Shown piece after piece: positions 1 to 4,461 of a DNA stretch of 4,461 nucleotides; the stretch's first letter is position 1; each line of letters opens with the position of its first letter. The DNA is from Naegleria gruberi (Eukaryota): assembly GCA_000004985.1 (NCBI GenBank), contig GG739185.1. The stretch is one strand, 5' to 3'. The notes beneath the pieces were generated by a model. It searched no databases and was not told the origin of the DNA. It was given only the letters and a program-made list of their open reading frames with translations. The position numbers and the translations under genes were made by a program.

Positions 1-1032
1 TTCATGAAAAAGTGTCTAGTTAATGGTGAATTGCCACCAATTATTATGGTATCTAGTGACAATGACCACAAGTTTGCACCATCAAACCGTAAAGGGCAAG
101 TTCGGATGGCGTTTTTGTGGGAAATATTTAATCTTGATGTTTTGATACATAGTTCCTATGCACCAAACTGTAGTAAGTATAATCGTGTAGAGAGAGAAAT
201 GGCACAACTGTCTAAAGTTTTAATAGGACATGTTGATTTAGACAGAAAACCCTTTGGAGAAGATAAAAAAGCAAAGCAAAAGAATGCTAATGCTGTGCTT
301 GAGAAGTTGAAGGAAATTTTTTTAAGAGCAGGCCCAAAGTATTTTGTAAATTCTGCAAGTGTCTACCAAACAGAACGTACACCTTTGCTTGAACATTGGC
401 CTACATTTGAGGAGATTGATTTATTTTTAGAAGGAAAGAATCAAGATGATGAAAAAATCAAAAGTTTGTTAAAAAAAATTCACACTCACTCCGAGCAAGG
501 AAATGGATTGAATCTTTTTGTTCTGAGAAAATGTGATGATCCAACATGTTGTTCACCAAAAAGAGCATCCAAATATTGGGAAATTACTAGTAGCTTTGGT
601 GGTTTTATTCCAAGTCCACTCATAGATCCTACTCGCTCCAACGAAAAGAATGAACATTTTTATTCCTATGAAGACAGAAACAAAATTTCAGGAGTTCAAA
701 TGGATGTCGACTTTCCTAGTTTGAAAGGAAATGCTGCTACTTGTGGCAAATGTAATAGAAGAATTCATTCTGAAATAGATAGGAAAATTCATGAAAATAT
801 TTGCCATCCAACAAGAACGGATTTGTTATTGGATGCTGATATTTCTTTGGAAGACAAAATATCATCTCCTGTTCCAACAGGAACAAAAGGGAGATCTTTA
901 GCAAAGCATTATTCTAACCTCGTAGAACAAGCAAAACAGAATGCACTAATTGAGGTTGAACGTGAACAACAATTAATCCAAAATTTAAACAACCCACAAC
1001 CACTGATTAGAAGAAAGAACAAAAAGAAATAG
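1..1032 (+). CDS. Hypothetical protein, 5'-partial; single C-terminal C2H2-type zinc finger plus a Cys cluster (CDDPTCC) and a basic NLS-like tail (RRKNKKK); stop TAG at 1030-1032
   Basis: The supplied ORF is 4..1032, but codon 1-3 (ttc) is in frame and not a stop, so the ORF is open at the window edge. It is 343 stop-free codons in AT-rich DNA and its composition looks protein-like. Zinc-finger pattern C-x2-C-x12-H-x4-H (CGKCNRRIHSEIDRKIHENICH) sits at nt 742-807. It is followed by an A/T-only spacer containing an AATAAA hexamer. I recognise no family-level homology by eye. Confidence 0.55.
   Translation, partial: FMKKCLVNGELPPIIMVSSDNDHKFAPSNRKGQVRMAFLWEIFNLDVLIHSSYAPNCSKYNRVEREMAQLSKVLIGHVDLDRKPFGEDKKAKQKNANAVLEKLKEIFLRAGPKYFVNSASVYQTERTPLLEHWPTFEEIDLFLEGKNQDDEKIKSLLKKIHTHSEQGNGLNLFVLRKCDDPTCCSPKRASKYWEITSSFGGFIPSPLIDPTRSNEKNEHFYSYEDRNKISGVQMDVDFPSLKGNAATCGKCNRRIHSEIDRKIHENICHPTRTDLLLDADISLEDKISSPVPTGTKGRSLAKHYSNLVEQAKQNALIEVEREQQLIQNLNNPQPLIRRKNKKK
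742..807 (+). other. C2H2-type zinc-finger motif (C-x2-C-x12-H-x4-H) inside the first ORF
   Basis: Direct reading of codons tgt ggc aaa tgt ... cat gaa aat att tgc cat. The spacing fits the classical C2H2 consensus C-x2-4-C-x12-H-x3-5-H. There is a single finger only. Confidence 0.5.
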
Positions 1033-1145: not shown

Positions 1146-1178
1146 CAGTGCCGAAACCCCCCACCCCTATGCGTGCTG
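1146..1178. other. Isolated GC/C-rich cluster GTGCCGAAACCCCCCACCCCTATGCGTGCTG at the boundary of the A/T-only spacer; function unknown
   Basis: There is an abrupt switch from ~0% GC to a ~65% GC island containing C6-A-C4 (G4TG6 on the minus strand). It is followed at 1185-1201 by the CCGTCTC..CCAAGG motif that recurs at 2063-2074. Confidence 0.5.
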
Positions 1179-1844
1179 TATTTTCCGTCTCTTCCCCAAG
1201 GATGGATTCTTCACTTACAATATTTTATAAGGTTATTAAGGGGGAATTATACTCATGATGATATTGTGTATTGTGAAAAAGTATTTACAAAATTTCAATC
1301 CATTTTTACATATTGTTTTGGCAAAGATAATTGCCAATTTCCGAATTATCATTGGGCAACACACATTTTTGAAGATTGTGTACTTTTTGGGGATGTTACA
1401 TGGTTTTGGGTGTTGATTTTTGAATTGAAACATTCTGAATTCAAACAATTTAATGATAGAAGTAATAACAAATTACTTGAAGTTAGAGGGTTGCAACATG
1501 AAGTTGGAATGAATACATTATTTGCAGATTATCCATTTACAAGACGATTAGTTGGTAAAACACTTGATGTTGCTAGAAAATCATCACTTAAGGTTGGAAT
1601 GTATATTCAATTCGATAGATTTATTGGGAAGATATCTCAATTAGGGGATAATGTTGTTTGTTGTGATGAAATTTTTACGCTTGGAGAGTTGTGTTATGTA
1701 TCATTAATGTACAAACTATTCATTCACTCAGTTGCCACTTCAGTAATTCCTCTTTCAAAGATTAATAGTGTGTGCAGTGTAATCAGATTTCCAGGTCTTA
1801 TTGCTCTCAATCAATTTTCATTCTGTATGAATTATTACCAATAA
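1173..1844 (+). CDS. Questionable hypothetical protein (223 codons from a GTG; internal in-frame ATG at 1509 would give 111 aa); F/W/C/Y-rich N-terminal half
   Basis: At roughly 6-7% stop-triplet frequency, 224 consecutive stop-free codons in AT-rich DNA are unlikely by chance. The minus strand is closed. However, the start is GTG and implausible for a eukaryote, the first in-frame ATG is far downstream, and the N-terminal half (FTYCFGKDNCQFPNYHWATHIFEDCVLFGDVTWFWVLIF) looks like translated T-rich non-coding DNA. The region 1509-1844 (MNTLFADYPFTRRLVGKTLDVARKSSLKVG...) is more protein-like. Confidence 0.3.
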   Translation: MLYFPSLPQGWILHLQYFIRLLRGNYTHDDIVYCEKVFTKFQSIFTYCFGKDNCQFPNYHWATHIFEDCVLFGDVTWFWVLIFELKHSEFKQFNDRSNNKLLEVRGLQHEVGMNTLFADYPFTRRLVGKTLDVARKSSLKVGMYIQFDRFIGKISQLGDNVVCCDEIFTLGELCYVSLMYKLFIHSVATSVIPLSKINSVCSVIRFPGLIALNQFSFCMNYYQ

Positions 1845-2590: not shown

Positions 2591-4461
2591 ATGACAGATT
2601 CCAATCAAGATTATCACAGTCCTCCTTATGGAGAAGATGATTCAATTGATGAGGATGAGGAAGACTTGATCATTGAACAATTTCTAGCCTCTGAAGAAAT
2701 TCTCTCTGAAGCAGACATTTACATGGAGAATGATAAGGAAGTTGAATTTCTTCTAGAGCAATGTCAATACATTCAACCATCTCTCAACAAGCCTTTGGAA
2801 AATGAGGAGTTTGGAAACATGTCAAGTCAATTGGATCCATCCAACCTTGGTGCATCTTTTGGTACTGCTGCTGCTGCTACTGATAGTGCTAATGCCAACA
2901 AGGCTTATAGTAGACGAATCATCAATAGTAGTGATTATTATGAAGCTTATCAACAACTTCAAGCTAATAGCAAGGCTATGGAAGTATGGAATCCTCCACT
3001 TGAATTGCCTCCTCCTATTGACGAAAACCATACTGCTCTTATTCTCAACTCAAAGGATGATTCTAGAAAGGAAGTTTTATTCGAGGCTTTGTTTAATCAC
3101 ATTCCCTCCAATGAAATCATGCATCAATTCGTCAAGTATATAGGTGCAGAACAAGTCTTGCAAGATTTATTCTCTGTAATTGCTATCAATTCTCTCAATG
3201 ATCCTTCTCTCTTACCAAAACTGGTCGAGCAAATCAATTCCTTAGAGAAGAAGAGAAATACACAAGACAGTCTAATTTCTCAAGATTTAGAGAAACTTAT
3301 TCTTGGATACAATAGAAGAGGTGGAACATCAATTATTAGAGGTCGTAGAAGAGAAGAATATCAGCAAATGATGGATGAAGCAGCACCCTCACTCGAAGGA
3401 CTAGTTGGCGAAGAATTAATGAAAAGGAGAAATGAAATCTTTCAAAAAATTAAAAATGAAGTGTCAATCAGTGAGAGAACAAGGAGAACCTTTATGACTG
3501 GTGTTAAGAATTACTTGGCATACTGTATAGACAATAATGTACAGCCTTTTATTGCAACTGAAAATCCCAAATACAAAGGTATTGTCAATGAGATAGCCTT
3601 CAACTCATGGGCTCTATTTCTTACAGAACCAATTAATGGAAAGATTTACAAATTCAATACAGTTCTAGGCTATGCCAGAGGACTTCGAAGATGGTGCGAT
3701 AGAAATGGATATCAAAATTGTCTTCTCCCTAAAACCACAGAGTCTCTAGACCTCGCAAAAGCAGTTTCTAACATTGTTAATACTGAGGAAATAAGGGCTG
3801 CCATTATCATACCATATGAAATTTTTAGAATGGTACTATCTCTGCCACCAACAGAAACTGGTTTAAGACTCAGAGCAAGACTTCTCATTCAATACTTGAC
3901 AGGGTCTCGACCTTTTTCTATTGATTGCGTCAAAATCAAGAACCTTACCATTAGACATGTCATTAACCCAACCAAGAATACAATAGAATCATTCTCACTC
4001 GATATTTTCTATGAACATGACAAGACAACTGAAGAGTGTTATAGAACTCAAAGACTCTACTCTTTCCCTGTTCTTAGATATTGTCCAATACTCATGCTTT
4101 TAGAATATTTGGCTTTGAGAGGAATTTTCAAAAGTGGTAACTTGGAGTCATGTTTGAAAAATTGTGACTTTTCTATTAAGGAAGAATGTTTGGAAATGCA
4201 TTTATTCTCCTCTATTGGAAATGGTTTTGTACCTCACAATTTGAGTCAATTTGCTAAAGAAATTACCAATTCTAGATTATTTGTTGGAATTCAGCAACAT
4301 ATTGTTCCTTATAGTATGAGAAGATCTGGAGCTACATGGGCTGCTGTGCAAATCATGATCCAACACCAAAGTTTAAAGGTTGACGAGTTTGAATTAATCA
4401 TTCGTTGGTATGGATGGAAGTTAACACCAGGTAACAATGTCTATCGTCGTTATGTTGACAA
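2591..4461 (+). CDS. Tyrosine recombinase / integrase (Cre-phage-integrase superfamily), 3'-partial (>=623 aa), with a long acidic low-complexity N-terminal extension
   Basis: Hand translation from ATG 2591 in frame 2 to the window end gives 623 codons with no stop. The ORF is absent from the supplied track only because it has no in-window stop. The start context is aaaaaaaacaacATGa (A at -3). Ordered motifs: SxxTxxxYxxxL core-binding-like helices at aa 294-380; box I LLIQYLTGSRPFSIDCVKIKNL (R440; compare Cre TLLRIAEIARIRVKDI); PTKNT (K462); box II PYSMRRSGATWAA (R577; compare Cre GHSARVGAARDMA); RWYGW (W609); NNVYRRYVD (Y618, W-to-Y spacing 9 as in Cre GGWTNVNIVMNY). The alternate-frame ORFs 2802-3143 (+) and 2822-3031 (-) overlap it and are rejected. 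Confidence 0.85.
   Translation, partial: MTDSNQDYHSPPYGEDDSIDEDEEDLIIEQFLASEEILSEADIYMENDKEVEFLLEQCQYIQPSLNKPLENEEFGNMSSQLDPSNLGASFGTAAAATDSANANKAYSRRIINSSDYYEAYQQLQANSKAMEVWNPPLELPPPIDENHTALILNSKDDSRKEVLFEALFNHIPSNEIMHQFVKYIGAEQVLQDLFSVIAINSLNDPSLLPKLVEQINSLEKKRNTQDSLISQDLEKLILGYNRRGGTSIIRGRRREEYQQMMDEAAPSLEGLVGEELMKRRNEIFQKIKNEVSISERTRRTFMTGVKNYLAYCIDNNVQPFIATENPKYKGIVNEIAFNSWALFLTEPINGKIYKFNTVLGYARGLRRWCDRNGYQNCLLPKTTESLDLAKAVSNIVNTEEIRAAIIIPYEIFRMVLSLPPTETGLRLRARLLIQYLTGSRPFSIDCVKIKNLTIRHVINPTKNTIESFSLDIFYEHDKTTEECYRTQRLYSFPVLRYCPILMLLEYLALRGIFKSGNLESCLKNCDFSIKEECLEMHLFSSIGNGFVPHNLSQFAKEITNSRLFVGIQQHIVPYSMRRSGATWAAVQIMIQHQSLKVDEFELIIRWYGWKLTPGNNVYRRYVD
2865..2878 (+). repeat. (CTG/GCT)4 trinucleotide repeat inside the recombinase N-terminal region (encodes AAAA)
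   Basis: Direct reading: actgctgctgctgctact. It lies in the Ala/Ser/Asn-rich low-complexity stretch GASFGTAAAATDSANAN. Confidence 0.7.
3470..3730 (+). other. Putative N-terminal core-binding (SAM-like helical) domain of the recombinase (aa ~294-380)
   Basis: SERTRRTFMTGVKNYLAYCIDNN ... TVLGYARGLRRWCDRNGY resembles the S-x-x-T-x-x-x-Y...L..F / RaLsaLrsFfkyl helices of phage-integrase N domains. The alignment is by eye only. Confidence 0.35.
3890..4461 (+). other. Tyrosine-recombinase catalytic domain (aa ~434-623): R440, K462, [H571/Y574], R577, W609, Y618
   Basis: See motif list above. Codon positions: R440 cga 3908-3910, K462 aag 3974-3976, R577 aga 4319-4321, W609 tgg 4415-4417, Y618 tat 4442-4444. 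The domain is truncated by the window edge 5 codons after the presumed nucleophile. Confidence 0.75.

Follow-up and report, generated by a model that had tools for sequence, protein, structure and literature searches.

Mobile DNA elements coding for a tyrosine recombinase (YR) are among the least described mobile elements of eukaryotes and are known mostly from fungi, oomycetes and animals. Cryptons are eukaryotic DNA elements of this kind, and the groups CryptonF, S, A and I have been distinguished among them (PMC3212892, PMC13465315). The term denotes an operational, polyphyletic class, i.e. a eukaryotic DNA element encoding a YR (PMC13465315). Starships are giant cargo-carrying elements of Pezizomycotina fungi (PMC13465315). 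In full-text literature searches we found no paper describing a Crypton, or the recombinase reported here, in Naegleria. The DNA under study is a 4,461-bp stretch of Naegleria gruberi (GenBank assembly GCA_000004985.1, contig GG739185.1), hereafter called the window; it is an entire small unplaced contig, and all N. gruberi evidence derives from it. Its longest open reading frame (ORF) encodes a very divergent tyrosine recombinase of a known class, and not a novel type of system.

The ORF occupies positions 2591-4461 on the plus strand and comprises 623 codons without a stop, its frame leaving the contig at the 3' edge, as a first-pass annotation made from the letters alone had stated. Upstream, the frame is last closed by a stop at 2549, after which no ATG precedes the one at 2591. 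At the base composition of the contig (33% G+C, stop-codon frequency 0.078), 623 open codons would be expected by chance with a probability of ~1e-22. The earlier description of the DNA as eukaryote-like agrees with its origin from a N. gruberi contig, whereas the ORF can no longer be called unreported, because its NCBI entry reads 'predicted protein, partial [Naegleria gruberi]'. In a word-indexed search of 5.8 billion proteins the ORF protein matched itself alone (one match). The ORF is a real N. gruberi gene fragment, deposited yet uncharacterised. Its parts and its active-site positions are the following, with pLDDT denoting the predicted local distance difference test score of the structural models:

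2591-4461, plus strand: ORF of 623 codons, the 5' part (about half) of the gene; the N. lovaniensis protein P0010 has 1,305 residues.
2591-3112, plus strand: unconserved N-terminal region, residues 1-174; no significant similarity to N. lovaniensis before residue 175.
3113-3457, plus strand: conserved helical region, residues 175-289, common to N. lovaniensis; long helices with pLDDT ~50-70.
3458-3784, plus strand: putative core-binding (SAM-like) domain, residues ~290-398; all-helical, low-confidence model.
3785-4461, plus strand: tyrosine-recombinase catalytic domain, residues ~399-623, cut two residues after the predicted nucleophile (R-R-Y-V-D).
3908-3910, plus strand: codon of R440, the box I arginine (T-G-S-R-P), aligning with XerD R148, Cre R173 and lambda Int R212.
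4022-4024, plus strand: codon of K478, the lysine conserved in the beta hairpin (here E-H-D-K, but K-E-K in relatives), at most one residue from XerD K172.
4310-4321, plus strand: box II, Y574-S-M-R577; R577 aligns with XerD R247 and Y574 with H244.
4415-4417, plus strand: codon of W609, the His/Trp III residue, which is a Trp here and also in Cre (W315), aligning with XerD H270.
4451-4453, plus strand: codon of Y621, the predicted nucleophilic tyrosine, in the conserved R-[RK]-Y-[VIM]-D motif and aligning with XerD Y279.

The ORF protein alone and a first profile of its family (see below) gave no significant match in Pfam, NCBIfam, PHROGs or PDB, and phmmer and hmmsearch found no PDB matches for the protein family. 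Below significance, Phage_integrase (PF00589) reached a best E value of 0.039 in a single family member, the best PHROG match was an integrase (E 0.039) positioned at box II, and four of the ten weak Pfam matches across the members were to YR families (Phage_integrase, two Phage_int_SAM families and DUF3435). For the profile-to-profile comparison with hhalign, a reference YR profile was built from four sequences, XerD, XerC, Cre and lambda Int, which were taken from annotated records and aligned together. The family profile matched this reference with a probability of 84.8% (P 6.6e-6, score 49.3) over 161 columns, i.e. over the entire catalytic domain, compared with a score of 19.2 for the reversed family alignment and of 9.7-16.6 for twenty column-shuffled versions. 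Significance was reached only with the four-sequence profile; against Cre alone (P 0.035) or lambda Int alone (P 0.093) the match was not significant, with the register correct. Two AlphaFold2 models, covering residues 260-623 with 8 sequences and residues 175-623 with 13 sequences, had mean pLDDT values of 56 and 57, and the catalytic core was confident in both; Foldseek with the first model returned noise only. Fold, profile and catalytic residues all support placing the protein in the YR superfamily. The earlier identification as a tyrosine recombinase is thereby backed by hhalign, although single-sequence hidden Markov model searches were not significant. Judged from its sequence, the ORF protein is very probably a YR-fold enzyme with an intact active site.

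R440, K478, Y574, R577, W609 and Y621 represent the ordered YR catalytic set conserved in the family alignment, with a Tyr-for-His deviation at box II. In the family signature, box I (L-R-x-x-A-x-L-L-x-x-x-x-T-G-x-R-x-x-S) is followed by the hairpin Lys, a conserved Cys-Pro helix, box II ([H/Y]-S-[MF]-R-[RK]-[SG]-x-A-T), G-W and finally R-[RK]-Y-[VIM]-D. The motifs quoted in the first-pass annotation were all located where it had placed them (GSRP at residue 438, VKIKNL at 447, YSMRR at 574, RWYGW at 605, and the acidic and low-complexity strings of the N-terminus), and its assignment of R440, R577 and W609 to the active site stands. Its other two residues have to be replaced. K462, taken as the catalytic lysine, lies in a variable loop, and the conserved hairpin lysine is K478; Y618, taken as the nucleophile, is an Ala in N. 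lovaniensis, and the conserved Tyr at the position of XerD Y279 is Y621. The Naegleria-type proteins (N. gruberi, N. lovaniensis and environmental) share the sequence P-Y-S-[MF]-R-R-S-G-A-T-W with a Tyr at the usual box II His, whereas the compact relatives P0007 and P0021 retain the His (G-H-S-M-R-K). Telomere resolvases have a Tyr at the box II His position.

The N-terminal extension of ~290 residues had been described as acidic, of low complexity and lacking an obvious fold. Its composition was correctly recognised, as residues 1-100 contain 26 Asp and Glu versus 2 Lys and Arg and a low-complexity Ala/Asn/Ser stretch follows; a lack of fold throughout, however, is not borne out. Only 174 residues are unconserved; residues 175-290, which are predicted to be helical, have a homologous counterpart in the N. 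lovaniensis protein. Within residues 1-174 no Pfam family was found, and this region is probably disordered. For residues ~290-398 we infer a putative core-binding domain: 198 residues align to full-length Cre, and Phage_int_SAM_1/4 match weakly (E 0.07-0.1) at the equivalent position in the relatives P0003 and P0011, whereas the hhalign match to the YR profile aligned the catalytic domain only. At the other end, BLASTP aligns residues 175-623 of the ORF protein to residues 220-666 of P0010 (34% identity, E 8e-80), and P0010 runs 639 residues beyond the point that matches the contig end. As P0012 and P0005 also extend further, the contig lacks about half of the N. gruberi protein. Judged by its N. 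lovaniensis counterpart, the N. gruberi gene would be a single exon encoding about 1,250-1,300 residues in full, with some 1.9 kb expected beyond the contig end and a Lys-rich tail like that of P0010. The C-terminal extension seen in the relatives contains conserved blocks, and in that of P0010 no recognisable domain was found by Pfam, including GCR1_C and DUF3504.

Among well-characterised recombinases, similarity to Cre and XerD is detectable only profile-to-profile; the Naegleria protein is eukaryotic, about four times longer, and has a box II of the form Y-x-x-R instead of H-x-x-R. It differs from Flp of the yeast 2-micron plasmid in lacking a plasmid context and large inverted repeats, in its Trp-to-Tyr spacing of 12 residues and in its unrelated overall sequence. 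The Captains of Starships are likewise eukaryotic YRs, encoded by DNA elements, and DUF3435 (PF11917) is the only Pfam family touched by the ORF protein (E 0.023-0.088, in the box I region, profile positions 31-143 of 418). This match, however, scores 12.2-14.1 bits against a threshold of 25.8, and there is no cargo context. The domesticated proteins derived from Cryptons (Ndc10/Cbf2 and Gcr1; the DUF3504 proteins QRICH1, ZMYM2-4 and KCTD1) have lost catalytic residues (PMC3212892), whereas the ORF protein keeps them.

An exhaustive phmmer search of 1.84 billion representative proteins yielded five non-self relatives: P0002 (36% identical to the ORF protein, E 4e-67), P0003 and P0004 (44-58% identical, both fragments of the same environmental gene), P0005 (E 8e-5) and P0006 (E 3e-4). 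The group of P0007 and P0008 was added by a profile search. P0002 is a N. lovaniensis protein with the UniRef name "Tyr recombinase domain-containing protein", and names of that sort stem from an automatic PROSITE-profile rule. The neighbouring gene of the same species encodes P0010, the full-length form with 1,305 residues. Identity between the N. gruberi and N. lovaniensis proteins is 34-36%, and the family spans sizes from compact forms of 391 residues to multi-domain forms of 1,305. No relatives were found in two scans of JGI metagenome contigs or in the 2.9 million viral contigs of IMG/VR. In terms of copy number, a single 90% cluster was obtained with one member in N. gruberi, and N. lovaniensis has two. 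The closest environmental relative (44-58% identical) lies at 8487-11289 of locus L008 (ENA ERZ27315067 k141_431645), where the gene is broken by two frameshifts and split across three reading frames within ~250 bp. The split recurs in an independent JGI contig, with P0011 and P0012 as separate ORFs. Either a pseudogene or small introns would account for it.

The compact relatives (~391 residues, ~22% identical to the ORF protein and without the extensions; ENA ERZ25074310 and ERZ26867466) reside on contigs of 61-837 kb with 31% G+C, which also carry chitin synthase, ankyrin and Ras genes. There they form units of 2.7-2.8 kb that are 98.6-99.7% identical across different large contigs with differing flanks. 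The units and loci are:

L010, 14239-16947
L001, 12481-15189
L010, 7247-10074
L011, 7250-10757

At every unit junction the 7-bp core TAGCGCC is found on the same strand; 2-5 copies were observed per locus, all of them at junctions, against a chance expectation of ~0.2 per 17 kb. A 670-bp module composed of the two ends of a full-length element resembles a non-autonomous deletion derivative. In two loci the last unit adjoins a tRNA-Lys gene (CTT in one, TTT in the other), and the core overlaps nucleotides 1-3 at the 5' end of tRNA-Lys. From this arrangement, the compact relatives appear to integrate serially and site-specifically at the 7-bp core by tRNA-Lys, since serial integration at a short core would produce both the observed junctions and the tRNA-Lys overlap. 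This indicates that some members of the family are active integrating elements, which, with an identity of 22%, does not prove the Naegleria gene to be one as well. Two further candidate associations were discarded. A tRNA-Ile association of the P0006 lineage, seen on three contigs, turned out to be the same single locus sampled three times, and the 210-residue second ORF of the compact elements, which shares 'FW[ST]S' with the C-terminal extension of the Naegleria proteins, is not its homologue according to BLASTP (E 3.2 and 1.1).

In N. lovaniensis, the two genes form a tandem pair at 5989-14183 of locus L005, which covers about 237-261 kb of PYSW02000005.1, a contig of 783 kb, with NmrA-like, translation-factor, RPS23, HROB and RRP12 genes as neighbours. 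The copies are 95.7% identical over 3.1 kb; the upstream one lacks 310 bp through a deletion, and its 5' truncation falls inside the ORF. Direct repeats as in Cryptons were sought at the ends of the pair and rejected, as no short terminal direct repeats are present around it, and the pair looks like a segmental tandem duplication. Between the copies, the ratio of non-synonymous to synonymous substitution rates (dN/dS) is 0.24 when taken over all 61 synonymous and 60 non-synonymous differences and 0.08 in the YR domain (9 and 3), with small counts behind both ratios. By these values, the protein has been under purifying selection. The synonymous rate itself is uneven, 0.04 in the YR domain versus 0.15 in the C-terminal part, which may reflect gene conversion. 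No synteny exists between the N. gruberi contig and this locus.

Set against the described classes, the Naegleria gene resembles Cryptons in several respects: an intact YR is encoded by a eukaryotic nuclear gene, reverse transcriptase and terminal inverted repeats are lacking, and a long conserved C-terminal region follows the YR, as in CryptonS and CryptonF proteins. Short direct repeats at the ends (the 7-bp core) and a putative non-autonomous derivative are found in the compact relatives only, and their junctions fit the Crypton model in which short direct repeats reflect target homology (PMC3212892, PMC13465315). On the other hand, none of the described Crypton groups shows a detectable affinity to it in sequence, the copy number in Naegleria is extremely low, ~290 residues (174 unconserved and ~115 conserved and helical) precede the recombinase core, and a Tyr occupies the box II His position. 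Crypton, in the operational sense, is the best label for the gene. Repeated copies with defined ends and short (4-6 bp) direct repeats that match the target, which characterise Cryptons, were seen in the distant compact relatives and not in N. lovaniensis.

On this basis, we favour the proposal that the gene encodes the recombinase belonging to a Crypton-type DNA element, rare and low in copy number, that would be mobile rather than host-serving, a proposal that we consider about as likely to be right as wrong. In favour of a mobile element are the absence of synteny, the low identity between species, the truncated or broken copies and the fact that the contig is unplaced; in favour of a host gene are its location among housekeeping genes, the very small number of copies and the constraint imposed by selection. 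In such an element, the central part of the protein would be a catalytically competent YR, with a helical core-binding domain followed by the catalytic domain. By established YR chemistry, the enzyme would act as a tetramer on paired DNA sites, Y621 cutting one strand per duplex through a 3'-phosphotyrosyl link, followed by strand exchange via a Holliday junction and resealing without a cofactor. A Crypton-type element would thus leave the chromosome as a circle and re-enter it by recombination at a short identical core, and the acidic N-terminus and the ~640-residue C-terminal extension presumably serve regulation or DNA targeting. The first-pass annotation had likewise arrived at a YR, which holds with the residues corrected; the element types that it had offered (Crypton-type transposon, 2-micron-like plasmid, virus or domesticated recombinase) are a matter of inference only.

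Several observations weigh against the preferred proposal or its parts. No Pfam family reaches its threshold for the ORF protein or its relatives, and neither GCR1_C (CryptonF) nor DUF3504 (CryptonA) is present in the ORF protein or in the extension of P0010. Both AlphaFold2 models are of low confidence overall (pLDDT 56-57), and the segment from box II to the Tyr, with R577, W609 and Y621, has a pLDDT below 50 in both. With a Tyr instead of the His in box II, activity might be changed or lowered. The N. lovaniensis pair is located among housekeeping genes with no positive sign of transposition at that locus, and purifying selection fits a host gene equally well. Finally, the compact mobile relatives are only ~22% identical and lack the long extensions, so that their behaviour may not transfer.

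The chief alternative is that the gene encodes an active recombinase of the host, or one long domesticated, which would carry out site-specific rearrangement or handle circular DNA. We regard this as unlikely, yet worth serious consideration. Catalytic residues have been kept at a dN/dS of 0.08 in the YR domain, the N. lovaniensis gene lies among housekeeping genes on its 783-kb contig, there are very few copies (one in N. gruberi, two in N. lovaniensis), and long conserved non-catalytic extensions are typical of domesticated proteins. Domestication of Cryptons is well documented, but the documented cases have lost the catalytic residues (PMC3212892) that the ORF protein keeps. The lack of synteny between the species, an identity of only 34-36% between congeners and the existence of truncated and frameshifted copies also disfavour a host gene.

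The remaining part of the window holds two further ORFs. ORF1 (1-1032, plus strand) encodes 342 residues from an ATG at position 4; its frame is open from the first base, so that the contig edge may cut the gene. ORF2 (1173-1844, plus strand), a candidate gene, would encode 223 residues with the GTG start as listed. ORF1 is labelled as a N. gruberi 'predicted protein'. For ORF2, searches of Pfam, PHROGs, NCBIfam and PDB gave no match, and the related loci contain no counterpart. The spacers at 1033-1150 and 1850-2040 have 23-26% G+C and contain short imperfect tandem repeats, with TAAAT and AATTAAATAAAATTAA units at 1062-1128 and a 12-nt unit at 1882-1916. No Rfam families or tRNA genes were found in the window.

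All three ORFs are on the plus strand, and they could conceivably belong to one composite transposon with a DDE transposase and a YR. Such a combination has a parallel in the Tec elements of Euplotes, which pair a DDE transposase with a YR. In Fusarium, a Crypton is fused to a Mariner element in MarCry-1_FO (PMC3212892). The start of ORF1, 'SSDNDHKF...(37 aa)...YAPNCSKYNRVERE', is similar to the motifs around the second Asp and the Glu in DDE transposases and is followed by a Cys/His-rich stretch, and DDE_Tnp_ISAZ013 matches weakly (E 0.069, profile positions 183-244 of 308). If ORF1 is the C-terminal portion of a DDE transposase, as it may be, the contig would be rich in transposons. The composite itself is nonetheless improbable: the DDE match scores 12.6 bits against a threshold of 26.9, ORF1 has no homologue except itself, ORF1 and ORF2 have no relative near any YR homologue, and the contig has no terminal inverted repeats. 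We also considered ORF1 and ORF2 as conserved partners of the YR gene and rejected this, as tblastn at E <= 1 gave no match in the related loci; both are treated as unrelated neighbours.

An origin from an integrated virus or a nuclear plasmid, with an integrase of the 2-micron Flp or phage type, is quite improbable. The 2.9 million viral contigs contain no relatives, no virus-like or replication genes occur in the window or at the N. lovaniensis locus, no inverted repeat is longer than 33 nt (at 73%), and the N. lovaniensis copies are chromosomal. We also judge highly improbable an inactive YR-fold protein that only binds DNA, like Ndc10/Cbf2 or the DUF3504 proteins QRICH1 and ZMYM. The DUF3504 proteins have lost the Tyr and the second Arg (PMC3212892), whereas here the two arginines and the lysine, together with the Trp and the nucleophilic Tyr, are present and conserved family-wide, and neither DUF3504 nor GCR1_C matches.

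More speculative, and a very slim prospect, is a YR retained by the host to service the ribosomal DNA circle of Naegleria, where it might resolve multimers or amplify copy number. By analogy, XerCD and Cre act on bacterial replicons and Flp on the 2-micron plasmid. All Naegleria rRNA genes reside on ~4,000 copies of an extrachromosomal, closed circular element (CERE) (PMC10112140, PMC5805870). The low copy number of the gene, purifying selection and the large non-catalytic extensions would fit such a role. Hardly credible is a YR from a retrotransposon of the DIRS/Ngaro/VIPER type, for although N. gruberi has been reported, with uncertainty, to contain putative DIRS1-like sequences (PMC3266345), neither the window nor the 1,305-residue homologue nor the neighbours contain a reverse transcriptase, RNase H or methyltransferase, the combination of such genes with split direct or inverted terminal repeats was not found, the compact relatives (2.7 kb) are too small for a reverse transcriptase, and the gene has its own start codon and a promoter-like AT-rich upstream region.

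For the annotation of N. gruberi, the analysis provides a function for an anonymous 'predicted protein' together with a corrected active-site assignment. If the Crypton-type assignment is true, this class of elements would reach the Heterolobosea (Discoba) via a lineage that is too divergent for Pfam, and the compact relatives at the tRNA-Lys core would give the model of site-specific Crypton integration a concrete eukaryotic case on which it can be tested.

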